Positions 18,308-31,491 of a DNA stretch of 44,367 nucleotides are shown in pieces. A model generated the notes under the pieces. It had not been told where the DNA came from. It saw only the letters and a list, made by a program, of their open reading frames with translations, and did no database searches. Every line of letters starts with the position of its first letter. Position 1 is the stretch's first letter. Source of the DNA: a virus. The position numbers and the translations under genes are program-made. The stretch lies in the UHGV virus genome UHGV-0245551; one strand, 5' to 3'.

Positions 18308-20974
18308 TTGAAATTAGATAACTTAATTACGAAACTTCACTCGTACTTTAGTCAAAAGTTTGTAAGTCAACTTGAGAATAACTTCGAACAAATAAAATAC
18401 TGGACTAATAAAAGTGATGATAGCTTTAACGAGCATTTAACCACTCAAAAAAATGCGCATACAACTGATCAAATCAAACACAAAACTACAAAAGGTAAAG
18501 ATGTTGTATTATCTAATCATGAAAATTATCAAGATGAACTTATTGAACATCTTGTGTTAGGACATAATGGAGATGGAATACAAGAATTAAGAGCAAGTCA
18601 CACATCAATGGACGCTCAAAGTTTCGATTCTTTACACCAACGTCTATATCACGACTTTTTAAGAGAAAGTAACGCTAGAGAAGAACTAAGAGCCGACTTA
18701 ACCAAGAAAATACAACGTATTGTTAATGTTGATGATTTCGGAGGAGATCCAACAGGACAAAAAGACAGTACAAAGGCATTTCAAGACGCATTAGGTAACG
18801 GCAATGTACAGGTAACTATGAGTGGCGGTACTTACCTTACAACAGGTATTAAAATGCCTAACAACTCTCGTTTGGTAGGACAAGGTAAAGACATTACTAC
18901 TATTAAGCTAATGGATAAAACACCAGCAGAGAACATAGGTATCACTAACTTAAAAATGAGTGGCGGAGCTGAAAACATTTCTTTAGAAAGTTTTTCGTTC
19001 AATGGGAATAAGTTTAGACAAAATAAAACACTTAAAGCTACCGGTGGCTCTCGTTCATCTAACATTAGATTTGCGGGTGTAACTAATGGATATATCTATA
19101 ACGTTAAATCATATGACGCTTTACTACACTGTATCGATGTAACATATGCAAATGACAATTATTACTACGAAGGCGATGGAAACAGAGTGCCTTACGCATT
19201 AGAAAGTAAGCATATTCATATTGATAATTGTGAGGCATATGGTTGCGGAGATGATGGTATCACTACCCATCACTCTCGTTACATTACAATTTCTAATTGT
19301 TATGCACATACACCAACAGGTGGAAGTAATAACAATGGTATAGAAATTGACGATGGCTCACAATATGTGTTCTTATCAAACAACAGAACCAAAGGTAACT
19401 TCGGTGGTTTAGAAATCAAAGCACACAGTAACACAAGTGCTGCAAGTGGCGTATTCGTTAACGGTCACGTATCAATCGAAGATACAAGAGCTTACAACAT
19501 TCGACACATCGGTCATCATAGAGCTAAAACGGACAATAAAAGTTTGACTGCTTATGACGTGGTGCTAAATAATTGCTTAGCTTTAAACCCTAAATACAAT
19601 GGTGTGTATCCAGGCTCAACACCTAGAGCATTATTAATCAGTGCTTATAGAAATGTTTCTGTAAATAACTTTACAGCTATAGGTGATAGTGATTTCGGAA
19701 AATTAGAAGGTGGAAAACTAGATAAAAAACAACCAGCAATAGCCATCCAATTCATGTCCGAAAACATCTCGCTTAATAATATTAATGTGCGTAACTTTAA
19801 AAATGCAGAAGTAGATATTAGATTATTTGGCGGAGATAATAGACCGTCTAGAGTATCACTAAATAACATAAATATTTGGAATTCATCTAACAATATCGGT
19901 ATCGGTGTTGGAAGTAAAATATACGACACTAAAATAACTAATTGTAACTTACACGGCAATGGTTCAGGTATAGGATTACGTTTGACAAATAACCACGCTA
20001 TGATTAGCGGCGTCACAGCTGATAATTATTCAACTTCTGCATGGATAGCAGGAGAAAAGTACGACACACCACCTACAGTAGGAAAAGGCGGCGCTAGTAT
20101 AGCGTCTACAGGAAGTGCTGGTGTAGCAAACGCTAGTGCAGTTATTGCATCTACAGGTGGTTCGAAAGCATACAGTAATCGTAGCTTTGTATTAGGTTCT
20201 GGTGCTAACTCCAAATCTTATGGTTCACGTAGCGGTATTATCAATTCACTTAATTCTGAAACTGATAAAAAAGGCCATACACAACTGATTATGAATAGTA
20301 ATCGTGTTAAGTCACCTGGTAACTATCATGTTGTCGCTGGATATGGTTCTAGTGGTAATGCTTCTACATCTAACATTAAATTTGATTTAAGCACTTATTC
20401 AGGAAACTTAACTTTAGCCGGTCAACTTAAACAAGATAGTGCCGATATCGCAGAGTTATTTGAGTCACAAAATGGATTAGCAATCGATTTAGGAACTATC
20501 GTTACATTAGACGGCGATAAGATAAGAAAAGCGCAACCTAATGACACACCAATTGGCGTTATATCTGGAACTGCCGCGTTGGTAGCGAACGAAAAAACGT
20601 TCCACCACAAAGATAGATTTCTTAAAAACGAATATGGTGTGACTATCACGAATAGAAAACAAGTTGAATTTGTAGATGATGAGGGCAACGTTTCTTTCGA
20701 ATGGCGTGACATACCAGTAGAAAACCCTGAATATAACGACAAAATCGATTATCAATCACGTTCAGAAAGACCTGAATGGAATGTAGTCGGATTATTAGGT
20801 CAAATCTACACAAACATTGAGAAAGACGTTATACCAGGCGACTATATCAACGGTAGAGCAGGTGTAGGATATAAAGATAATGTGAATGGTAAAGGCAGAG
20901 TCATGAAGATAACTTCTGAATACACTGAAGAACGTGGCTGTGCAATAGCATTAGTATTGTGGGGTGCTAAATAA
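18308..20974 (+). CDS. tail fibre / beta-helix (pectin-lyase-fold) protein, probable receptor-binding or depolymerase protein
   Basis: 888 aa; repetitive N-x-G/I-x-I beta-helix-like segments (NCEAYGCGDDGITTHHS, NNGIEIDDGS, NGSGIGLRLTNN); Gly/Ser-rich C-terminal region. Confidence 0.5.
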   Translation: MKLDNLITKLHSYFSQKFVSQLENNFEQIKYWTNKSDDSFNEHLTTQKNAHTTDQIKHKTTKGKDVVLSNHENYQDELIEHLVLGHNGDGIQELRASHTSMDAQSFDSLHQRLYHDFLRESNAREELRADLTKKIQRIVNVDDFGGDPTGQKDSTKAFQDALGNGNVQVTMSGGTYLTTGIKMPNNSRLVGQGKDITTIKLMDKTPAENIGITNLKMSGGAENISLESFSFNGNKFRQNKTLKATGGSRSSNIRFAGVTNGYIYNVKSYDALLHCIDVTYANDNYYYEGDGNRVPYALESKHIHIDNCEAYGCGDDGITTHHSRYITISNCYAHTPTGGSNNNGIEIDDGSQYVFLSNNRTKGNFGGLEIKAHSNTSAASGVFVNGHVSIEDTRAYNIRHIGHHRAKTDNKSLTAYDVVLNNCLALNPKYNGVYPGSTPRALLISAYRNVSVNNFTAIGDSDFGKLEGGKLDKKQPAIAIQFMSENISLNNINVRNFKNAEVDIRLFGGDNRPSRVSLNNINIWNSSNNIGIGVGSKIYDTKITNCNLHGNGSGIGLRLTNNHAMISGVTADNYSTSAWIAGEKYDTPPTVGKGGASIASTGSAGVANASAVIASTGGSKAYSNRSFVLGSGANSKSYGSRSGIINSLNSETDKKGHTQLIMNSNRVKSPGNYHVVAGYGSSGNASTSNIKFDLSTYSGNLTLAGQLKQDSADIAELFESQNGLAIDLGTIVTLDGDKIRKAQPNDTPIGVISGTAALVANEKTFHHKDRFLKNEYGVTITNRKQVEFVDDEGNVSFEWRDIPVENPEYNDKIDYQSRSERPEWNVVGLLGQIYTNIEKDVIPGDYINGRAGVGYKDNVNGKGRVMKITSEYTEERGCAIALVLWGAK

Positions 20975-22506
20975 TGGAATTAGAAAAAGTAGGTAAACTT
21001 GATTTAAATGAAGAACCATATTTACAACCGATATCTAATAGAGGTATCGGTTTTTATAATCTCGATAAAAATACTGCTAAATTTCAATTTGTAGTACAAA
21101 AAGACAACAAACCTTTGTTAATCAGCGATAAGAACGTTAAAGGTTATGCTTTCTTTAAAGCTGCGAACGGAACAGAAGAAAAACGACCTAGTACATCGGG
21201 TGTATTAGACGTAGAGTTCATTGATCCAATGAAAGGATTAATAGGCATTACGGTACCTCAATGGTTTCTGAAAAATGTTGTCGATTCTGAAGTGTTGGGT
21301 GAAATTTACTTATCACTCAATGATGTGAATAACGTAGGGAAAGACGACACTGTTGTGTTAGGTACTTTTAAATTCACGGTACGCGACAGTCTTATCAATC
21401 AAATAGAAAGCGACATTAAAGTATCTTATATTCGCATGTTTGATGATTTGCGTTCGGAATTAGAAAAGAAAGTGCAACAACTTAAGCAAGATATAGGCGA
21501 TACACAAACGTTGATTGAATCTATTAAGCAAACAGCTGAAGAATACCTCATTAAAATAAACAAGGCTCAAGCAGACGCTATTGTTTCAATTACAGACGCA
21601 TTATTGTCGTCTAACCAAAGCATTGACTTAGAGAGAGAAGAAGCGTTAAGACAAATAGATGCTAAACGTGACGCTATCAAGACGGATTATGATTTAGCTT
21701 CAGATACATTCCAAAAAATTTATGATAGCAATGTGGACGCTTTTAATTCAAATGTTAATCAAGCTAACACAACAATTGATGAAAAGCTACAAACATTTAA
21801 TGAAACCCTTGAAAGAGATGGCTTTACTACTCCTGAATATGTAGAAAGTAAGTTTACAGAAAAGGATTGGCAAAAATTTAAATTAACAAATGATGATGGT
21901 ACTAATTTTTATGATGCTAACCTACAAATAGATTTCGATAATAACGAACAATTAATGTCTTTACCGATAGGAACTAGATATGTTGTTCTTACTTTGAACA
22001 ACCCAACTGGAACAAATAATAATGGGTGGTTAACAAAGTATAAAAGAAATGGAGATGCAGTTCTAATACAATACCAACCTTACAATTCAACTGTAATCTA
22101 CCAAAAAAGATTTTATAAGAGTTGGAGTGGTTGGGAACGTGTCGGTTCAGATGTTGTAGATACTGGTTGGATTGATTTACAACTAGTGAACAGTGCATCA
22201 CCTCATAACGACTTAGTTACTAAGGGTGGCTTCACTAGTGCGTACAGAACAATTACACAAAATGGAGTTACTAAGAAAATGTTACGCATTAATGCTACAA
22301 CGATTAAACATGGACAGACCATTGCACTTTTACCTAAAGAATTCGTCAAAAACTTAATGTTTTTCTCAATAAGTGCACCTAGAAACAAAAATAGTGGACG
22401 TATTTCGTTGAACACATCAGGAACAGTGAATTTTGACGCTACTGTAGATCCATCAGCGTGGACTGATACAGATTATATTTACGGTCAATATGAATGGACG
22501 GAGTGA
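20974..22506 (+). CDS. tail fibre / receptor-binding protein candidate
   Basis: 510 aa; central coiled-coil region; C-terminal beta-rich domain; position after beta-helix protein. Confidence 0.45.
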   Translation: MELEKVGKLDLNEEPYLQPISNRGIGFYNLDKNTAKFQFVVQKDNKPLLISDKNVKGYAFFKAANGTEEKRPSTSGVLDVEFIDPMKGLIGITVPQWFLKNVVDSEVLGEIYLSLNDVNNVGKDDTVVLGTFKFTVRDSLINQIESDIKVSYIRMFDDLRSELEKKVQQLKQDIGDTQTLIESIKQTAEEYLIKINKAQADAIVSITDALLSSNQSIDLEREEALRQIDAKRDAIKTDYDLASDTFQKIYDSNVDAFNSNVNQANTTIDEKLQTFNETLERDGFTTPEYVESKFTEKDWQKFKLTNDDGTNFYDANLQIDFDNNEQLMSLPIGTRYVVLTLNNPTGTNNNGWLTKYKRNGDAVLIQYQPYNSTVIYQKRFYKSWSGWERVGSDVVDTGWIDLQLVNSASPHNDLVTKGGFTSAYRTITQNGVTKKMLRINATTIKHGQTIALLPKEFVKNLMFFSISAPRNKNSGRISLNTSGTVNFDATVDPSAWTDTDYIYGQYEWTE

Positions 22507-22510
22507 TGAA

Positions 22511-22849
22511 ATGAAAGTAGTTTATTTATGGAAAAATGGACAAGCAATTATTGTTCACAAAAACGAAGAAGATGAATATGTTTATCCTGATGAAAAATGG
22601 ACTGAGAACAAACCTCCTCAAGGTATTATCTTACCTTGCTATTATGACGGTAAACAATGGGTTGGACAAACCCAAGATGAGCTAGAAAAGATGTTGCCTG
22701 AAGTAGAAATTCCTGTTGATGACAAAGATATTGCTATAGCTAAATTAACTAGCTTAGTTGTCGATTTACAAGAAGAAGTTATGAGTTTGAAGCAGAACAT
22801 CGCACTAATAAATGAAGAACAAGCAAATCAAAAATTGGGGGAAGCATAA
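22511..22849 (+). CDS. hypothetical tail-module protein
   Basis: ORF track 22490..22849; ATG 22511 preceded by GGAGTG is the likelier start. Confidence 0.4.
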   Translation: MKVVYLWKNGQAIIVHKNEEDEYVYPDEKWTENKPPQGIILPCYYDGKQWVGQTQDELEKMLPEVEIPVDDKDIAIAKLTSLVVDLQEEVMSLKQNIALINEEQANQKLGEA

Positions 22850-22850
22850 T

Positions 22851-22991
22851 ATGGACAAAGTAGTAATCGATTTATATAAGAAGAAATTATACACTGACGA
22901 AACTTTCAAAAAGTTTGTTAGAGTTGGTTGGATTACTCCGGAGCAATTTAAAGAAACTACAGGTAAAGATTACGAACCACAAGTTAAATAG
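22851..22991 (+). CDS. XkdX-like small phage protein (46 aa)
   Basis: MDKVVIDLYKKKLYTDETFKKFVRVGWITPEQFKETTGKDYEPQVK*; below ORF-track cutoff; XkdX-family proteins commonly sit next to XhlA/holin genes. Confidence 0.4.
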   Translation: MDKVVIDLYKKKLYTDETFKKFVRVGWITPEQFKETTGKDYEPQVK

Positions 22992-23028
22992 CTTGTGGTT
23001 TTTATTTTAAGTGAAGTAGGTGTTTATA

Positions 23029-23327
23029 TGACAGAAAGTAGCCAAAGAGGGGATTACGAAAGACGTATAAAAAGATTGGAAGATAACGACGAAAAAATCT
23101 TCAACTCTTTGGAACAGATAAAAGACGGACAACACAATCAAAATTTGATTAATCAAAAAATGAATTTCACTTTGGACTCTATCAACAGAGAGAGAGAATT
23201 AGAATCTCAAAACAAAAAAGAAAATCAAAAAAACATCAAAGACATTAAAATGTGGGTTTTAGGATTGGTTGGCACTATAGCTGGTTCTTTAATCGTAGCA
23301 GTATTAAGAATGTTTTTCGGTGTTTAA
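23029..23327 (+). CDS. XhlA-like membrane protein (coiled coil plus C-terminal TM)
   Basis: ORF track 22995..23327; ATG 23029 (MTESSQ...); C-terminal WVLGLVGTIAGSLIVAVLRMFFGV transmembrane helix; RBS-like AGTAGGTG upstream. Confidence 0.4.
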
Positions 23328-23414
23328 AGGAGGTGAGTTACCATGTTCGGATTATTTTTAGGTGCAAGTTTTTGGGAATGTTTCTGGTTTGGTAAATGTA
23401 AATAATTGAGAAAC

Positions 23415-23445
23415 AAAGCCGGCTTTTTAGTCGGCTTTTTATTAT
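23415..23445 (+). terminator. intrinsic terminator after tail/XhlA module
   Basis: AAAGCCG-gctttttagt-CGGCTTT followed by TTATT. Confidence 0.5.
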
Positions 23446-23465
23446 GCCGGAAATGAGGTGGATAT

Positions 23466-23812
23466 ATGGGATTACCTAGTCCTAAAAGAAGAAAACCTAC
23501 TGCTTCGGAAGTTGCAGCATGGGCAAAAAGGATGATTGGCAGAAGAGTTGATGTAGACGGTTATTATGGCGCCCAGTGTTGGGATTTACCAAACTACATT
23601 TTCAATAGATATTGGCATTTTAAAACAACAGGAAATGCGATTGCTATGGCATGGTATAGATATCCTAAAGGCTTCAAATTCTATAGGAACACTAGAAACT
23701 TTGTTCCGAAACCTGGTGACATGGCAGTTTGGGGAAAGGGCTCCTTTAATAACGGTGTTGGGCATACTGCTGTTGTCATAGGTCCATCTACCAAAAGTTA
23801 CTTTACAAGCGT
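23466..23812 (+). CDS. virion-associated peptidoglycan hydrolase, exon 1 (CHAP domain N-terminal part)
   Basis: CHAP catalytic Cys (GAQCWDLPNYIF) and His (GVGHTAVVIG); frame is terminated 18 nt later by intron sequence; RBS GAGGTGG upstream. Confidence 0.6.
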
Positions 23813-24742
23813 TGAATGTAATTGGATATAGTTGTATAATAGACTCAAAGAGGTGTGTTATATGGCTAAAAAAATAGATAAAGAAAGCTTGATCGGGAAG
23901 ACAAAAGGAATATATACATTGATTGAAAACGTCAGTGTTACTCATTCGATTTTTAAGTGTGAAAAATGTGGTAAAACATATAAAATGAATTTTTATTCTT
24001 GGTATCGCAGAGGTAGGCAAATTTGTAAATGTATGTATAAAAATACTCATCACAAACTGTATGGTAGATATGATAAAATGCTTTATCGTTGCTATAATTC
24101 TAATTCAGATAATTATCAATATTATGGTGGTAGGGGCATAAAGGTTTGTGAACGTTGGAAAAATAACTTCAAAAATTTTCTAGAAGATATGCAACCTACT
24201 TATTTTGAAGGTGCTGAATTAGATAGAATTGATAACGATTCAGACTACTCTCCTAGTAATTGCAGATGGGTAACACATTCACATAATATGCATAATAGAA
24301 AGAATTTCAAGAACAAAACTAATTTTCCAGGCATTAAAAAGAATAAAAACGGATATGTTGGTAGAATTCAAATTAACAAAATTAGTTATGCCACTAGACA
24401 ATATCCAACCCCCGAAGAGGCTTTCGAGAAATTACAATTACTAAAACAGCGCCTATATTCAGAAATGAATATAAGCAAACCTCTCTAATTCATGGGATCC
24501 CCTAACGTAAAGACGAGGGCAATCATGAGCGAAGCCTATAAATAGGAACGTGCAACGACTATCGAAAGCGCACTAGACACTCTTTTGAGTGTCTTTTTTA
24601 GTGCAAGCAAGTAGAGTACATTCAAGTGAATGGAAACGAGAGGCAACCTAACAGGTTGATGATATAGTCTAGTCTATATGGAAACATATAGCAGTTCATA
24701 AGAGAACGGACAATGATTAACGACCATTGTTGAATATAAACG
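23813..24742 (+). mobile_element. group I intron (about 930 nt) interrupting the tail hydrolase gene
   Basis: 5' exon ends in U (23812). The intron ends in G (24742) immediately before open exon-2 frame that lacks any start codon for 270 nt. Core motifs: GACTA (24557-24561) and GATATAGTC (24661-24669, P7-like) lie downstream of the intron ORF. Splicing gives in-frame ...TSV|DQNWIGANSYTGSP... Confidence 0.6.
23832..24488 (+). CDS. HNH homing endonuclease encoded within the intron
   Basis: 218 aa; Cys-rich zinc-finger segment CEKCGKTYK...CKC; HNH motif ELDRIDNDSDYSPSNCRWVTHSHNMHN. Confidence 0.65.
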   Translation: MYNRLKEVCYMAKKIDKESLIGKTKGIYTLIENVSVTHSIFKCEKCGKTYKMNFYSWYRRGRQICKCMYKNTHHKLYGRYDKMLYRCYNSNSDNYQYYGGRGIKVCERWKNNFKNFLEDMQPTYFEGAELDRIDNDSDYSPSNCRWVTHSHNMHNRKNFKNKTNFPGIKKNKNGYVGRIQINKISYATRQYPTPEEAFEKLQLLKQRLYSEMNISKPL

Positions 24743-26297
24743 AGATCAAAATTGGATTGGTGCAAATAGTTATACAGGCTCACCTGGTGCGAAAATTAAA
24801 CATAGTTATAACGGTATAAGTGGGTTCGTCAGACCTCCCTACCACGCAGAAACTAAGAAACCATCGAAACCAAGTAGTACACCGTCCAAACCTTCTAATG
24901 ACAACACTCCTAAAAACACAAAAGAACAAACAAAACCTATAACTAAAGAGATTACCAAAGTTTCCTATACATCATTCGCATACGATTTAGACGATGATTT
25001 GGAATATATTTATCATTACATGGTTGAAGGGCAAAAGTTGATAGGGAAGGTAAAAGGTATATATATCAAAGAGAGTACACATATGCGTTCTGTTGAAGAA
25101 TTGTATTTACAACGTAATAAATATGTGAACGAAGATGAATACCCTCATGTATATATAGACCGAGAGCGTGTATGGACGCCTAGACCTGATTCAGAAGAAG
25201 CGCCAGAACATCCAGGTTGGCTTGTTATGGAAGTTTGTGGAGGACAAACAGAGAGTAAACGCCAATTCATGCTCAATCAAATCAGAGCGTTAATCTACGG
25301 CGTTTGGTTGCTAAGTTGGAGTAAGGTAAAACTATCTGAATCATCAATCAAAGCAGACCCTAATATATGGCGTTCTATGAAAGATTTAATTAATTACGAC
25401 TTAATCAAAAACGGTATTCCTGATGAAAGTAAATATAAAGAAGTAGAAAAGAAAATTATCGGTTTATATTTGAAAAGAGATAAATTACTTACAGAAACAA
25501 TTACTACAACAACTACAAAGACAACGATAAAAATTAAACCTAAAACTTCGGTCGACAATCCTTCACAGAACGATAAGTCGACAGGCAAAACGACAAACAG
25601 AACTTCAAATAAACCTCGTGTAGTTGTAGAGAAAAGTAAATATACTTTCCAACAAGCGCTTAATGCACAAATGGCTCATGGCATGCCTCAAAAATCTTAT
25701 AGTTGGGGTTGGGGCAATGCTTCTAGGTCACAAACAAGTAAGTATATGAATCCTAACACTATATGGAATAGTTCAACTCAACGCTATCAAATGCTAGATT
25801 TAGGAAAATATCAAGGTATATCAGTAAGTAAGTTGAATAAGATACTTAAAGGTAAAGGCACTTTATCTGGACAAGGTAAAGCTTTTGCAGACGGTTGTAA
25901 GAAGTACAATGTAAATGAAATTTACTTAATCGCTCACGCTTTCTTAGAGAGTGGATATGGCCGTAGTAACTTTGCTAGTGGACGTTATGGTATCTACAAC
26001 TACTTTGGTATTGCAGCTTACGACAACAACCCTAACGCTTCTATAGCATACGCTAGACGTCAAGGGTGGACGAGTCCACGTAATGGTATTATAGGTGGCG
26101 CTAAGTTCGTTAGAAAACAATTCTTCAACAAAGGTAAAAACACATTATACAGAATGCGTTGGAACCCTAAAAACCCTGGACATATGCAATACGCTACTGC
26201 GATTGAATGGTGTAACTTCCAAGCTACAACTATTAGTAGCTTATACAAAAAAGTAGGTGCAAAAGGTATGTACTACATTAGAGATAAATATAGATAA
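24743..26297 (+). CDS. virion-associated peptidoglycan hydrolase, exon 2 (CHAP C-terminal part, linker, GH73 glucosaminidase domain)
   Basis: Frame open from 24726 with no start codon until 24999; PSKPSSTPSKPS linker; YNVNEIYLIAHAFLESGYGRSNFA glucosaminidase motif. Confidence 0.6.
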
Positions 26298-26352
26298 CAA
26301 GGCTATTCACTGTGAGTGGGTAGCCTTTAATAACTAGAAAAGGTGGTTTCTA

Positions 26353-26862
26353 ATGCTAATAAATGTACTTAATTTAAATGACTCACAAGACGGCAATCGC
26401 ATTAAACAAGGTGACTTATCGCACATGCGATACATCTTGTCTGACACTAACAACGATGATTTAAAACTAGATGGATTACCTGCAAAAGTTTTTCTCACTG
26501 ACAGTACAGGTGTCAAATATATCTACGACACTACAGTTAGGCAATATGACAATGCCTATGTGTGCGATGTTGTAATCAATCAGATTATTCCTGCAAACAC
26601 GTATTCATTAGAAATATGGGTGGATAACAAGTATGTATTCCCGTCTGACAATAAAGCGAAAATTCAAGTGACAGAGAGTGTGATTGGTAGACAATTAATC
26701 AACACACAAAACCATGATTTATGGCAAGAAATGATTGAATACGGTGTAAAAAACGGATTAATTAAGAACCAAACTGAAAGCGAAGAAAATTTTGTCATTG
26801 GAGAAAACGAACCGACTGACACAACTAAAATTTGGATTGACACTACTGGAGGTAATGAATAA
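26353..26862 (+). CDS. hypothetical tail/baseplate-associated protein
   Basis: 169 aa; RBS AAAAGGTGG; overlaps next gene start (ATGA). Confidence 0.4.
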   Translation: MLINVLNLNDSQDGNRIKQGDLSHMRYILSDTNNDDLKLDGLPAKVFLTDSTGVKYIYDTTVRQYDNAYVCDVVINQIIPANTYSLEIWVDNKYVFPSDNKAKIQVTESVIGRQLINTQNHDLWQEMIEYGVKNGLIKNQTESEENFVIGENEPTDTTKIWIDTTGGNE

Positions 26863-27392
26863 TGAAAGCTATACCTAAAATTTTTGACAAGGAAAAAGGG
26901 CAATGGATTGAATTAATGGCTAAACCTATAGCAGAGGAAGTAGTTAAAATTATGAAAGAAGATTGGTTGTCTAATAAAAAAACGATTGATTATTGGTTGC
27001 TAAGCTATAAAGAACAAGGTATGGCTGAACCTATTCAACTTGCTATATTTACTGATGGCAATGAAGTTGATGAAACATTAAAAAGTAATTTAGAGTGGAG
27101 TTTTAACGGTTATGTATCTAATCTACAAAACAAAAAACTCTTTAATTTACAGGGTTTTATAAACGATTGCTATAGTAGAAAAATAGAATTACCTAAACAA
27201 TTCAAAGTCAACGCTACTGTAAATTTCGATAGTTTAGATGAGCCTATTTACTTACAGGAAATCGACAATATAACTACTAATGTTGATGTAATAGGTATGT
27301 TAGATGAATCTTCTAAAGGTTCGATTGAAGTTAAGTATATTTATAACGATCACCCTATAGAAGAGAAGAAATTAATAAAAGAGAACAAGTAA
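26862..27392 (+). CDS. hypothetical tail/baseplate-associated protein
   Basis: 176 aa; translationally coupled with previous ORF. Confidence 0.4.
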   Translation: MKAIPKIFDKEKGQWIELMAKPIAEEVVKIMKEDWLSNKKTIDYWLLSYKEQGMAEPIQLAIFTDGNEVDETLKSNLEWSFNGYVSNLQNKKLFNLQGFINDCYSRKIELPKQFKVNATVNFDSLDEPIYLQEIDNITTNVDVIGMLDESSKGSIEVKYIYNDHPIEEKKLIKENK

Positions 27393-27446
27393 TTTAAGTC
27401 AACGCATTGCGTTGGCTTTTTAATTTAACTAAAAGGAGTGTTATAT

Positions 27447-27734
27447 TTGAGAAATTTCTTAGGAATAAATTGGCATGTAAGATTTAATAATCCTATAGCT
27501 ATTATTCAATTAATTGTAGGTGCATTTATGCCTATTCTTGTTTATTTAGGAATTGATTGGCATTCATTAACTACTTGGGGTGCTGTTGGAGAAGCTTTAT
27601 TAAAATTTATTAGCAATCCAATTGCTGTAATTGGTGTGTTGGTAAGTCTATATATGTCGGCAGTAGACGGTACAAGTGCTGGTTTGTCCGATAGTTTAAT
27701 GGCTCAAGAATATAAGAAACCTAATAAGGAATAG
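27447..27734 (+). CDS. holin
   Basis: ORF track 27438..27734; TTG 27447 eight nt after AAGGAG is the likelier start; two to three TM helices and charged C-terminal tail (EYKKPNKE); immediately upstream of endolysin. Confidence 0.6.
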   Translation: MRNFLGINWHVRFNNPIAIIQLIVGAFMPILVYLGIDWHSLTTWGAVGEALLKFISNPIAVIGVLVSLYMSAVDGTSAGLSDSLMAQEYKKPNKE

Positions 27735-27746
27735 GAGGCCTATAAA

Positions 27747-29471
27747 ATGGCAGAAAAATGGAATGGAGTACCAGTGCGTTACGATTTGTTGCCTATTGGA
27801 ACACGTCGTAGTGGAGAAGCATTACACACTAAAAATGGAAAGCCTAGTTTTGCAGTTATTCATGATACTGGGAATCCAAATACTACTGCACAAGATAATG
27901 TGAATTATTATAAAAATACTTATAATATCGCTTGGAGTATGGTAGCGAGCGCTCATATTTTTGTTGATGACAAAGAAGCAATTATATGTATTCCAGTTAC
28001 AGAGGTAGCATGGCATGTTATGTTGAATACTACTATAGATAATCAGTGGTATAATGCTGATGCTGACTATGCGGCATTTGGTGTAGAAGCATGTTACTTC
28101 ACAGATAAGAAACGTAGTTTAAAGTCGTTAGATAACGCAGCGCGTATCATGGCTTATCTTACTAAATTTTGGAAGATTAACTATAAAAATGAAATGCCAG
28201 GTCATCAAGACATACAGTATGACAAGCAAGATCCTGGAAACTTATTAGAAGCTTGTGGCTTAGGTCGTAATACGAGTATCTTTGATGGGTATGTAGCTAA
28301 ATATATTGACGTCGTTAAAGTTCCCAAAGTTAGCAAGAAGAAAGCCGGAAACAAAGGTAAAAACAAAGAAAAACCTAAATCTAAACCAACAACTAAAGAT
28401 TACCAAAGTGCAATCAATTATATGTATAGCCTGAAAGGTAAGTTTGTTGACTTTGATAATCGTTGGGCATATCAGTGTATGGACTTAGCAGTTGATTACG
28501 TATATCACATAACTAATGGCAAAGTTAGAATGTGGGGTAATGCGAAAGACAGTATCCTCAACATATTCCCTAAAGGTTGGAAGATTGTTAAAAATACATC
28601 AGATTATATACCTCCAGTTGGAGCAATTGGTGTATGTACGTATGGTATATATCAAAGATACGGTCACATCTATTTAGTTTGGGATAATAGTGGAGGAACT
28701 AACACACAAACTGTATTAGAACAAAACTTTGATGGTAACGCAGATACACCTGCAAAACTACGTGTAGATAATTTTTATGGAACAACACATTACATCGTGC
28801 CATCGTTTGTTGACGAAGACTATGACGTTAATAAAATTAAAACAGTCACGACACGTAAGGCTACAAATAAATATAATGGTAAACGAGTACCTAAAAACCT
28901 AGTATGGAGTAAAACGCCGCATTACATTGCAAAAGCAGACAGTGCAGGTGTCACTATCTGCAAAGATGTTAAAAACGGATATATGAAGAAAACTAATCTG
29001 GTATACAAAGCAGGTTATAGTCCGTTTTACGTATATGAAGTACGTGAAGGTTGGGCGCGTGTTTATTCTGAAAGTAGTAATTACTGGGTATGGCATGAGC
29101 GTTTGATCATCACTAAAGAATATAAACACAATGAAACAAGAGATGGTAAAAAAGCTAGTAAGCAAACAAAAGAAATGAAGAAAATAGCAAAAAAATCTAA
29201 AAACAAGCTTTCTATAGGTCAAATACCACCTAAAAGATTAAGTTGGCAACGTAAAAAGTACTTTGCAGCACGTGCAGATAGCTTTGGTGCAACGATACTT
29301 AACAGACATGGTGGTAAAGGTAATTACTCATGGAATATGACTAATACAACATATGGTAAAGGTCAATTATTCTATGTTTACGAGATTATCGACGGTTGGT
29401 GTCGTGTACACGGTCCTAGTGATAACTACTGGGTATGGCACGAAAGACTTAGAATTACAAAAGTATATTAA
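27747..29471 (+). CDS. endolysin: N-terminal Amidase_2 (PlyL-like), central CHAP, two C-terminal SH3b-like repeats
   Basis: FAVIHDTGNP...AHIFVDDKEAIICIP...AWHV (Amidase_2 pattern); WAYQCMDLAVDY...RYGHIYLV (CHAP Cys/His); tandem repeats ending YWVWHERLIITKEY / YWVWHERLRITKVY; RBS AGGAGG. Confidence 0.8.
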   Translation: MAEKWNGVPVRYDLLPIGTRRSGEALHTKNGKPSFAVIHDTGNPNTTAQDNVNYYKNTYNIAWSMVASAHIFVDDKEAIICIPVTEVAWHVMLNTTIDNQWYNADADYAAFGVEACYFTDKKRSLKSLDNAARIMAYLTKFWKINYKNEMPGHQDIQYDKQDPGNLLEACGLGRNTSIFDGYVAKYIDVVKVPKVSKKKAGNKGKNKEKPKSKPTTKDYQSAINYMYSLKGKFVDFDNRWAYQCMDLAVDYVYHITNGKVRMWGNAKDSILNIFPKGWKIVKNTSDYIPPVGAIGVCTYGIYQRYGHIYLVWDNSGGTNTQTVLEQNFDGNADTPAKLRVDNFYGTTHYIVPSFVDEDYDVNKIKTVTTRKATNKYNGKRVPKNLVWSKTPHYIAKADSAGVTICKDVKNGYMKKTNLVYKAGYSPFYVYEVREGWARVYSESSNYWVWHERLIITKEYKHNETRDGKKASKQTKEMKKIAKKSKNKLSIGQIPPKRLSWQRKKYFAARADSFGATILNRHGGKGNYSWNMTNTTYGKGQLFYVYEIIDGWCRVHGPSDNYWVWHERLRITKVY

Positions 29472-29830
29472 ATTATGTGGTATAATGCAGGTACCACGTC
29501 ATTATACAAGGGGAGTCGCTATGACTACCCTATTTTTTATTGTATAATATTCTTTGTTCCTGATTTCAAACTAATACTATATTCTAAACCGCGTTCTTTA
29601 TGAGCGTGGTTTTTTGTGTACACGTGTCAAATACGTGTCAAAATAGTTATAATCTTTTAGTTCTATTTAGAAAATAAATCTTTTAAAACACTGTACTTAT
29701 GGCTATTTAGTTTTATTTAGAAATTTATTTTTATCCCTCCGTTTCCGTACTATACCGTTGATATGACGGGATTTCGAGAGAGTAAGTGTCAAATAAGTGT
29801 CAAGAGAATATTTCTCTGACACGTTGACCT
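29472..29830. other. attP-like region between lysis genes and integrase, with arm-type repeats
   Basis: ACGTGTCAAATA / ACGTGTCAAAATA at 29622-29645; AAGTGTCAAATA / AAGTGTCAAGAG at 29784-29806; inverted CGTGTCAGA at 29815-29823; about 25 nt direct repeat TTTAGTTyTATTTAGAAA at 29655-29684 and 29706-29733. Confidence 0.45.
29586..29615 (+). terminator. intrinsic terminator after endolysin
   Basis: AAACCGCGTTC-tttat-GAGCGTGGTTT (11 bp stem with two G-U) followed by TTTTGTG. Confidence 0.6.
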
Positions 29831-30849
29831 TGCTCTTTTTTATGTTCTTCTAATAAATGTGAATACGTGTCTAGCGTTTGTGATATAGTAGCGTGACCTA
29901 AACGTTTACTTATATACTCGATTGGTATGCCTTTAGATAGTAAGTAAGATGTGTGCGTATGTCTGAGTGAATAGGGAGTTATATTATTATCGTTTAATCC
30001 TATCACTTCTTTTGCTTTTCTAAATGCTTTACTTACTGATGTATGACTAACCGAGAATAGCTTGCCATCAATTCTACGCGGCATTTTAGCTAATTTTGAA
30101 TTTATGTGCATGATATCTTTTGAATTAACTTCTACATCACGTTTTGAATTCTTTGTTTTCGTTCCAGGCAAATGAATTATGCCATTCGCTTTGTTTAGAT
30201 CTTTGTAAGTCATATTGATGACATCGCTATATCTTGCGCCAGTAATGCCTAATAGATATAGCAAAACATAACTTTCTTCATCTCTTTTCTTGAAATAATC
30301 TAGCAAGTTTAAATAGTCTTTTATTGTAATAAACTTAAATTTCTCATCTTTAGCTTTTTCAGTCCCTTTGATATTTACATTATAAGTAGGGTCTTTCTTC
30401 AAATAGCCATCGTATAACGCGTCTCTAATACATCTAGCAAGACAACCGTGAACTTTTCTTACTGTTTCATCAGTGTGACCTTGTGCGTATTGATTTAAAA
30501 ACTTTTGATACTCACTACGTGTGATATTTTTAACTAACATATTTTCTCCGAAATACTCACTGAATAATTTAATCGATCTTTCATACCAGTAGAATTGTTT
30601 GCTAGATAACTGTTTCTTGTTCTTAATTTTTATCCAGTCATCGTAGTAGTCAATGAATTTTTTATTATCTTCAATGTTGTTGCCATCTTCTAAATCTCTA
30701 ATAAATTGTTGTGCTGCGTTTGTAGCCTCAGCTTTTGTTTTAAATCCAGATTTACGTTTTTTGCCAGATTTCAAACTAGGGTGTTTAACATCATATTGCC
30801 ATGATGAGCTTTTCTTATTTTTGCGTTTGGTTACTGTAAATGTTGCCAT
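29800..30849 (-). CDS. int: tyrosine integrase with N-terminal arm-binding (AP2-like) domain
   Basis: 349 aa; N-terminal KRKNKKSSSWQYDVKHP...GFKTKAEA arm-binding-like; C-terminal catalytic R...HxxR...Y (LRHTHTSYLLSKG...LGHATISQTLDTYSHL). Confidence 0.85.
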   Translation of the reverse strand: MATFTVTKRKNKKSSSWQYDVKHPSLKSGKKRKSGFKTKAEATNAAQQFIRDLEDGNNIEDNKKFIDYYDDWIKIKNKKQLSSKQFYWYERSIKLFSEYFGENMLVKNITRSEYQKFLNQYAQGHTDETVRKVHGCLARCIRDALYDGYLKKDPTYNVNIKGTEKAKDEKFKFITIKDYLNLLDYFKKRDEESYVLLYLLGITGARYSDVINMTYKDLNKANGIIHLPGTKTKNSKRDVEVNSKDIMHINSKLAKMPRRIDGKLFSVSHTSVSKAFRKAKEVIGLNDNNITPYSLRHTHTSYLLSKGIPIEYISKRLGHATISQTLDTYSHLLEEHKKEQGQRVREIFS

Positions 30850-30909
30850 TTTCTGTGTTCCTCCTTAAAAAGGTAAAAAATAATAAGGGTAGGCGAGCTA
30901 CCCGTAAAA

Positions 30910-31491
30910 TTATTCTGCTGGTGTATTTTGAACTTCTTGTTGTCGTTTAGCCCAACTGTCGTAACCTTCATTTTTTCCTACCCAACCTGGACCACCTACA
31001 TGTGCGTTTGGATTGTTCCAAACCTTTTCGCTTGCTTTACGAGCCTCCTCATACTCTGAACGTCCATATCCCATTTGTGACTCATCGTGTGTGGTAGGTT
31101 TTGTTCTATTCCATTCATCGATTTCAGCTTGCGACATATAACCGTTATTATTTTGTGGTTGTTGGTTATCGCTTTGTTGAGTGGTTTGCTTGCCTTGTAT
31201 GCGTTCATTGTTTCCATTATTGCTTTGTGATTTACCATTATCGTTTTTAGATGTGCTTTCTGATTCGTTGTTAGTAGTGTCATCACTATTGTTTTTTGAT
31301 TCAGATTGTTTCTCGTCTTTAGAATCAACTTTCTTATCATCTGATTTTTTATCTTTCTTTGGATCGTTAGATTTCTTATCTGATTTACTTTCCGACTTCT
31401 TATTATCATCCTTATTTGGTTTGTGTTCGTCTTGACCACATGCACCTAACACTAATAAACTTGCAAATATTAAAAATAGGACCTTTTTCAT
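30910..31491 (-). CDS. lipoprotein, low-complexity K/D/S/N/Q-rich with a roughly 70 aa C-terminal domain
   Basis: Signal peptide MKKVLFLIFASLLVLGAC (lipobox LGAC); long charged low-complexity linker; ordered aromatic-rich C-terminal domain. Confidence 0.55.
   Translation of the reverse strand: MKKVLFLIFASLLVLGACGQDEHKPNKDDNKKSESKSDKKSNDPKKDKKSDDKKVDSKDEKQSESKNNSDDTTNNESESTSKNDNGKSQSNNGNNERIQGKQTTQQSDNQQPQNNNGYMSQAEIDEWNRTKPTTHDESQMGYGRSEYEEARKASEKVWNNPNAHVGGPGWVGKNEGYDSWAKRQQEVQNTPAE

Follow-up and report, generated by a model that had tools for sequence, protein, structure and literature searches.

A predicted endolysin of the LysIPLA5 type with two SH3b_T repeats in a Rockefellervirus-like temperate siphovirus genome

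Is a phage lysin with reversed enzyme domains and a doubled wall-binding module a rearranged form of the canonical staphylococcal lysins, or an assembly of modules in its own right? This question is raised by a gene in the virus genome UHGV-0245551, which has a length of 44,367 nt (hereafter the window) and is the genome of a Rockefellervirus-like temperate siphovirus. A preliminary description made from the sequence alone had read the gene as an endolysin with an N-terminal amidase, a central CHAP domain and two C-terminal repeats, and had proposed domain shuffling and an altered wall-binding specificity or avidity. We conclude with high confidence that the protein serves a temperate Rockefellervirus-type S. 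epidermidis siphovirus as its holin-dependent endolysin and is an allele of the known lysin LysIPLA5. The interpretation given in the preliminary description is supported, but it is not new.

The endolysin gene and its lysis cassette

The open reading frame (ORF), which had been delimited exactly in the preliminary description, starts with ATG and encodes 574 amino acids (aa). Of these, 562 (98%) are identical, without gaps, in LysIPLA5, which is gp29 of Staphylococcus phage vB_SepiS-phiIPLA5 (YP_006560970.1, UniProt I6T7G5), and the gene shares 95% DNA identity over its full length with the phiIPLA5 endolysin gene. The two proteins have in common the length, the architecture Amidase_2:CHAP:SH3b_T:SH3b_T, the genomic slot in the order holin, lysin, integrase, and the host S. 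epidermidis. They differ by 12 substitutions and in the phage backbone, which in the window is phiIPLA7-like outside the lysis and integration block. The exact protein of the window is already present in NCBI as WP_049388137.1 (S. epidermidis); it was found on 411 contigs and belongs to a 90%-identity cluster with 374 member sequences. One sequence of the same cluster, P0129 (WP_365161614.1), has the annotation Streptomyces anulatus; it is located on a contig of 42.9 kb, and contamination of that assembly with a staphylococcal phage is the most likely explanation.

LysIPLA5 was called atypical by Vazquez et al. 2024, with a reversed Amidase_2/CHAP order and two C-terminal SH3-like repeats, which according to this work share 44% identity; its two-repeat region defined the new family SH3b_T (PF24246), of which LysIPLA5 is the founding member (PMC12634807). 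The architecture, the SH3b_T family and the preference for coagulase-negative staphylococci are thus already published, and the protein type is an ordinary one.

The gene order holin-endolysin-integrase is identical to phiIPLA5 gp28-gp30, and places the gene in a lysis cassette (Table 1). The holin gene is located directly upstream, and its stop codon lies 12 nt before the endolysin start. The late operon probably ends at the hairpin downstream of the endolysin gene. The assignment of this hairpin as a terminator is weak and is made by position alone, because two such sites were found compared with 1.4 expected in shuffles; neither the promoter nor the terminator scan gave more sites than expected from shuffles.

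Table 1. Features of the endolysin locus (positions refer to the window).
Feature	Position	Strand	Details
Mosaic block: holin, endolysin, attP region and integrase	27390..30914	.	blastn, 95.8% identity to phiIPLA5
Holin gene, 98 aa, Phage_holin_1	27438..27734	+	Pfam PF04531, E 2.2e-16; phiIPLA5 counterpart gp28 annotated as holin
AGGAGG ribosome-binding site of the endolysin gene	27733..27738	+	overlaps the holin stop, 8 nt before the ATG; seen by direct reading of the sequence
Endolysin gene, 574 aa, ATG start	27747..29471	+	LysIPLA5 allele, identical to WP_049388137.1
Amidase_2 (PF01510), aa 31-165	27837..28241	+	Pfam E 1.7e-16, 61.2 bits
Linker 1, lysine-rich, flexible, aa 186-218	28302..28400	+	K+R fraction 36%
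CHAP domain (PF05257), structural span about aa 219-352	28401..28802	+	Pfam core aa 238-327, E 3.5e-7, 31.1 bits
SH3b_T repeat 1, aa 384-456	28896..29114	+	separate Pfam scan, E 8.5e-37, 125.7 bits
Linker 3 between the repeats, lysine-rich, aa 457-497	29115..29237	+	K+R fraction 35%
SH3b_T repeat 2, aa 498-571	29238..29459	+	separate Pfam scan, E 1.3e-37, 128.4 bits; model pLDDT about 84-93
Hairpin resembling a terminator, with a T-run after it, downstream of the endolysin gene	29586..29612	+	consensus scan
Tyrosine integrase gene, convergent with the endolysin gene	29800..30849	-	Pfam Phage_integrase, E 2.4e-18; synteny with phiIPLA5 gp30

We considered the possibility that, instead of a phage endolysin, the protein could be an autolysin of the host or a hydrolase of the virion, as could be thought because some records in the cluster bear names like 'N-acetylmuramoyl-L-alanine amidase CwlA' and because the protein is present in many bacterial assemblies. 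However, its occurrence in bacterial genomes is accounted for by prophages, and the gene follows immediately after a holin gene where the late operon ends, beside an integrase gene and in a phage genome. The protein has no signal peptide, and in PHROGs it falls in endolysin families (best phrog_635, E 7e-94); the NCBIfam scan of the protein gave no family match. Further, since a separate tail-associated hydrolase with CHAP and glucosaminidase domains is encoded at 23466-26297, the endolysin gene does not encode the virion enzyme. We consider a host or virion origin extremely unlikely.

In the 2638A lysin and in some enterococcal and clostridial lysins, shorter products are made from internal translation starts. 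A second product of this kind, consisting of the cell wall-binding domain (CBD) only or of CHAP and CBD, would here have to start at an internal in-frame codon. There are in-frame Met codons in the linker (M477) and before the CHAP domain (M226), which we did not count as positive support. A scan for in-frame ATG, GTG or TTG codons after a Shine-Dalgarno-like motif with a minimum length of 5 nt recovered the true start and, as the one other candidate, M92 inside the amidase domain; there was no credible start at any domain boundary. A shorter product is therefore very unlikely, and we retain the full-length endolysin as the product of the gene. In a 2025 preprint, the prediction of secondary ribosome-binding sites was judged inconclusive by its authors (10.1101/2025.02.06.636829). 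An antisense ORF within the gene (28899..29222, 107 aa) was dismissed as a mechanical ORF in AT-rich DNA, without support.

Enzyme domains and their order

The N-terminal Amidase_2/PlyL-like block and the central CHAP domain of the preliminary description were both recovered by Pfam, with gathering cut-offs of 26-27 bits (Amidase_2 26, CHAP 26, SH3b_T 27). The motifs on which that description relied are present at IHDTGNP (aa 38-44), AHIFVDDKEAIICIP (aa 69-83) and AWHV (aa 88-91) in the amidase and at YQCMD (aa 242-246) and GHIYLV (aa 306-311) in the CHAP domain. PDB sequence searches with the N-terminal amidase recovered the PlyL, XlyA and Atl amidases, while a central amidase of the LysK/LysGH15 type was absent from the matches listed, even with the limit set at E <= 10.

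The Amidase_2 domain is predicted to be a zinc-dependent N-acetylmuramoyl-L-alanine amidase. In an alignment of 29 sequences, composed of the window protein and 28 family representatives, the predicted zinc ligands H39, H153 and D162 and the catalytic E114 are invariant (29/29). Three of them (H39, E114 and H153) align residue by residue to a solved N-acetylmuramoyl-L-alanine amidase (PDB 2l47), and D162, which is part of a DPG motif in place of the usual CPG, is presumably the third zinc ligand. In the CHAP domain, the catalytic residues C244, H307, E325 and N327 and the calcium-site residues D235, D237 and D246 align with those of LysK, and comparison with the solved CHAP structures 4olk and 4csh (LysK) gave E values of 7.5e-29 and 1.8e-28.

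The endolysin reading could be refined in the sense that only one of the two enzyme domains works, the other being nearly silent or auxiliary. In some canonical staphylococcal lysins of the LysK type the amidase is reported to be nearly silent or auxiliary. For LysIPLA5, activity was regained only with a fusion of CHAP and CBD, and none was reported for the amidase (PMC12634807); moreover, the CHAP domain of many relatives lies under Pfam detection, though it is well aligned. Against this, both enzyme domains keep all their catalytic and metal-binding residues in 28-29 of the 29 sequences, including relatives with down to 53% identity. Mean identity to the window protein across the family is 75% for the amidase, the most conserved module, and 67% for CHAP, compared with approximately 35% for the linkers. 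This conservation pattern argues for selection on both enzyme domains, and we regard a single working domain as possible, but less probable than a lysin with two functional enzymes.

As stated in the preliminary description, the domain order is reversed in comparison to the canonical lysin. The match to the phi11 lysin (CHAP 28-113, Amidase_2 197-323, SH3_5 395-460) is non-colinear: aa 23-144 of the window protein align to phi11 aa 190-303 and aa 223-332 to phi11 aa 11-118, each with approximately 25% identity. No match to SH3_5 (PF08460) was found in the protein even at E <= 1, and its architecture is not the canonical one of CHAP, Amidase_2 and a single C-terminal SH3_5. With phi11 LytA, LysK and LysGH15 it shares the two enzyme families, an SH3-type wall-binding module and the logic of a holin-lysin cassette, and its CHAP domain is closely related to that of LysK and LysGH15 (E ~1e-28). 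In contrast to these lysins, the order of the enzymes is reversed, SH3b_T is present twice instead of SH3_5, and the amidase is nearer to the PlyL, XlyA and Atl amidases than to that of phi11. Host preference is also different, since the LysIPLA5 type prefers coagulase-negative staphylococci to S. aureus (PMC12634807).

The preliminary description had called this architecture swapped, which is correct for the order of the domains but not as a literal rearrangement. A literal domain swap of a LysK-type lysin is ruled out by the low amidase identity to phi11 and by the PDB matches of the PlyL, XlyA and Atl type. Since the N-terminal amidase is of this kind, the protein is a separate module assembly and not a rearranged canonical lysin.

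Two further lysin types can be compared. Lysins of S. pseudintermedius phages, such as that of SP197, have homologous CHAP and SH3b_T modules (approximately 42% identity over aa 219-574 of the window protein), but they have no amidase domain, contain a single repeat and are 251 aa long. The endolysin of phiIPLA7, PH15 and CNPH82, which is usual in the sister Rockefellervirus phages, occupies the same genomic slot and is also bicatalytic with a C-terminal SH3b-type module. However, the phiIPLA7 lysin has the architecture CHAP:Amidase_3:SH3b_P2, and only its CHAP domain can be aligned to the window protein (32% identity).

The SH3b_T repeats and the proposed mode of action

The Pfam family SH3b_T matched the whole protein in two stretches (E 4.3e-72), and the repeats are located within approximately 25 nt of the coordinates that had been estimated from the sequence. 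By local self-alignment, aa 370-459 pair with aa 482-574 with 44 of 89 positions identical (49%); the score of 198 compares with 30.6 +/- 6.0 in 500 shuffles (z = 27.7). The near-identical repeat ends noticed in the preliminary description were confirmed as YWVWHERLIITKEY (aa 446-459) and YWVWHERLRITKVY (aa 561-574), which share 12 of 14 residues. Because near-identity is limited to these C-terminal 14-mers, and the codon-aligned nucleotide identity between the repeats is 54%, the duplication is old. Compared across species, copies of repeat 1 share 66% identity and copies of repeat 2 share 60%, while repeat 1 and repeat 2 are 50% identical. The repeats are therefore closer to their counterparts in other species than to each other, which means that the duplication is mostly older than the spread of the family. 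A recent tandem duplication is ruled out by the same two observations.

The repeats have an SH3b-like beta-barrel fold. In the model of the wall-binding region, the predicted local distance difference test (pLDDT) score is 78 overall and 80-93 within the repeats. Both this model and that of the full-length protein predict, with low confidence, a helix at approximately aa 465-483 in linker 3. In a comparison list, the teichoic-acid-binding domains of SlpA (6.8) were followed by LytB (6.7), the LysPBC5 CBD (6.4), the C-terminal domain of TagH (6.3), PlySb (5.7), the SH3b of Lysostaphin (5.2), the 2638A CBD (5.0) and PlyPSA (4.7); the Foldseek search gave no significant match.

The proposal that the C-terminal repeats bind the cell wall agrees with their assignment to an SH3b-like family and with published data: a green fluorescent protein (GFP) fusion of the two-repeat region of LysIPLA5 bound staphylococci, with a preference for S. 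epidermidis and other coagulase-negative species (PMC12634807). Because of this preference, the altered wall-binding specificity suggested in the preliminary description is already backed by experiment. The idea of avidity corresponds to an explanation which was itself offered as a proposal: two-repeat CBDs give a higher binding signal, and the second repeat was proposed to raise affinity (bioRxiv 10.1101/2025.02.06.636829). Higher affinity or avidity is likely the role of the second SH3b_T repeat.

Alternatively, the two repeats could have diverged to recognize two different wall ligands, resulting in dual specificity instead of avidity. With 49% identity they are indeed quite different, and, since each is nearer to its cross-species counterpart than to its partner, they were long maintained as distinct units. 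However, the family-conserved positions are largely the same in both repeats (DS-G-T motif, F/YVYE, DGW-RV, WVWHERL), and single-repeat CHAP:SH3b_T lysins exist, the CBDs of which bind too. Dual specificity is in our opinion unlikely; a contribution of the second repeat to affinity remains the preferred explanation.

Based on these data, the following mode of action can be proposed. Having no signal sequence, the endolysin would accumulate in the cytoplasm late in infection. The adjacent Phage_holin_1 holin would then open the membrane and allow the protein to reach the wall, as suggested by the gene order and by established lysis biology. By means of the two SH3b_T beta-barrel repeats it would attach to the cell wall of coagulase-negative staphylococci, in line with the binding shown for the 98%-identical LysIPLA5 region. 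The candidate ligand would be a glycopolymer, for instance wall teichoic acid; for SH3b_T, binding to a glycan or to teichoic acid was suggested from fold similarity to PSA_CBD and PBC5_CBD (PMC12634807). Judging from the conserved catalytic residues, the zinc amidase would cut the bond between N-acetylmuramic acid (MurNAc) and L-Ala, and the Cys-His peptidase of the CHAP domain, with its conserved residues and its similarity to the LysK and LysGH15 CHAP domains, would cut the peptide cross-link. The domains would be joined by the predicted flexible, lysine-rich linkers; in linker 1, aa 196-214 have pLDDT values below 50, and mean identity across the family is 35%. The full-length model (pLDDT 72, predicted template modelling score 0.39), which was built from the shallow alignment of 29 sequences and in which the lysine-rich linkers are disordered, is consistent with such a beads-on-a-string layout. 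Lytic activity was published solely for a fusion of CHAP and CBD of LysIPLA5, in which the two-repeat region enables killing by CHAP: the minimal inhibitory concentration of the fusion was 0.75 uM, while CHAP alone was inactive at ~6 uM (PMC12634807).

Several points speak against this picture. The confidence of the full-length model is moderate, and parts of the amidase domain have pLDDT values below 50. The ligand of SH3b_T stands at the level of a suggestion, the bond specificities of amidase and CHAP are assigned by homology only, and an activity of the amidase domain in the LysIPLA5 type is predicted. In addition, neither full-length LysIPLA5 nor any of its single domains was active in vitro, a result that its authors explained by poor yield (PMC12634807).

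Module exchange, the mosaic block and the natural allele

Nine of 50,697 phage records have matches that extend over 80% or more of the protein. They correspond to six distinct phages, namely phiIPLA5, StB27, IME1365_01, IME-SA4, IME1318_01 and Mammaliicoccus phage MSShimriz1, the last of which matched in several pieces. The relatives from StB27 (S. hominis), IME-SA4, IME1365_01 and IME1318_01 (S. haemolyticus) align to 100% of the window protein and are 54-74% identical to it. In a large protein collection, full-length relatives form approximately 90 clusters at 90% identity from coagulase-negative staphylococci, including S. epidermidis, S. saprophyticus, S. gallinarum, S. simulans, S. carnosus, S. 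haemolyticus, S. borealis, S. felis, S. hyicus and others. The prophage-cluster relatives have 550-580 aa, align over the full window protein and are 51-83% identical to it. Full-length relatives differ from the window protein in host species, in the poorly conserved linkers and in a CHAP domain that often escapes detection by Pfam.

The architecture is unusual beside the lysins of S. aureus phages, but it is that of a standard prophage lysin in coagulase-negative staphylococci. The preliminary description had conceded that its view of the architecture would fall if this were the common one in the phage group. For bicatalytic SH3b_T lysins the architecture is indeed standard, and it is widespread in prophages of coagulase-negative staphylococci; among the sequenced Rockefellervirus phages, however, Amidase_2:CHAP with two SH3b_T is a minority.

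The suggestion of domain shuffling was borne out by relatives that combine the same N-terminal amidase or CHAP with other modules: Amidase_2:CHAP:SH3b_P2 in P0101 (aa 30-164, 258-344 and 394-483), Amidase_2:SH3b_T:LysM:CHAP in P0105, Amidase_2:LysM:SH3b_T in P0113, Amidase_2:SH3_5 in P0104, Amidase_2:SH3b_P2 in P0110, and CHAP with two SH3b_T, without amidase, in P0095. According to the 2025 preprint, which surveyed 182 staphylococcal lysins, Amidase_2:CHAP is always found with two SH3b_T, and CHAP:SH3b_T with one (10.1101/2025.02.06.636829). P0101 (within P0096-P0103), P0105 and P0095 look like exceptions to this rule, although P0095 might alternatively be a split or truncated gene.

Exchange is also visible at the level of the genome. 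According to blastn, the left flank up to 27438 is phiIPLA7-like (96.5% identity at 20001-23827 and 93.6% at 24744-27438), and it is followed by a phiIPLA5-like block of approximately 3.5 kb, which contains the holin gene, the endolysin gene, the attP region and the integrase gene. The left junction is in a short intergenic stretch containing a hairpin (27396-27418), and attP is presumably located in 29472-29799. In the genome paper of 2012, the holin, lysin and integrase of phiIPLA5 were described as unlike those of phiIPLA7, PH15 and CNPH82 (PMC3505474). Since the whole block is phiIPLA5-like on a phiIPLA7-like backbone, lysis and integration genes seem to travel together.

The gene for the tail-associated cell-wall hydrolase mentioned above is split by a 930-nt insertion (approximately 23816-24745), which harbours an ORF for an HNH endonuclease (23832..24488; phrog_374, E 4e-56) and a group I intron core (Rfam RF00028, 24430-24691, 95.2 bits, E 2e-23). 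When the insertion is removed, an ORF of 633 aa results, of which 624 are identical in the uninterrupted gp22 of phiIPLA7. In the Rfam scan of the whole window this was the sole group I intron, and no intron was found in the endolysin gene. The whole insertion was found in no phage record of the collection; the best match had 71% coverage at 71.5% identity, and the others were core fragments only. In phiIPLA5, a related intron core is apparently present in the same CHAP-coding region, at a different site. The predicted HNH-carrying group I intron interrupting the tail hydrolase gene is a small addition beyond the literature. Just upstream of this gene, a small ORF (22995-23327, 110 aa) matches DUF2951 (E 2e-32) and also gave a weak XhlA-like signal below the cut-off (E 0.0033).

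The substitutions between the two alleles, likewise a small addition to what has been published, are of interest with respect to the LysIPLA5 protein. LysIPLA5 carries Y186H, G401D (repeat 1) and W564R (repeat 2) in columns where all 29 aligned sequences agree, and the window protein keeps the consensus at all three (codons at 28302-28304, 28947-28949 and 29436-29438). G401 and W564 are conserved between the repeats, too (G401/G514 and W449/W564). At the level of sequence, these exchanges may have a bearing on the low yield and activity reported for LysIPLA5. One could go further and suppose that the published LysIPLA5 is a compromised laboratory allele, that the natural protein would bind and lyse markedly better, and that the repeats might see different ligands, but this we consider quite unlikely.

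In summary, the window has little value for discovery and a modest practical one. It contains the common natural allele of LysIPLA5, which could be a better start for the engineering of lysins against S. epidermidis, and it provides an apparent example of a holin-lysin-integrase block passing as one unit between related phage backbones.

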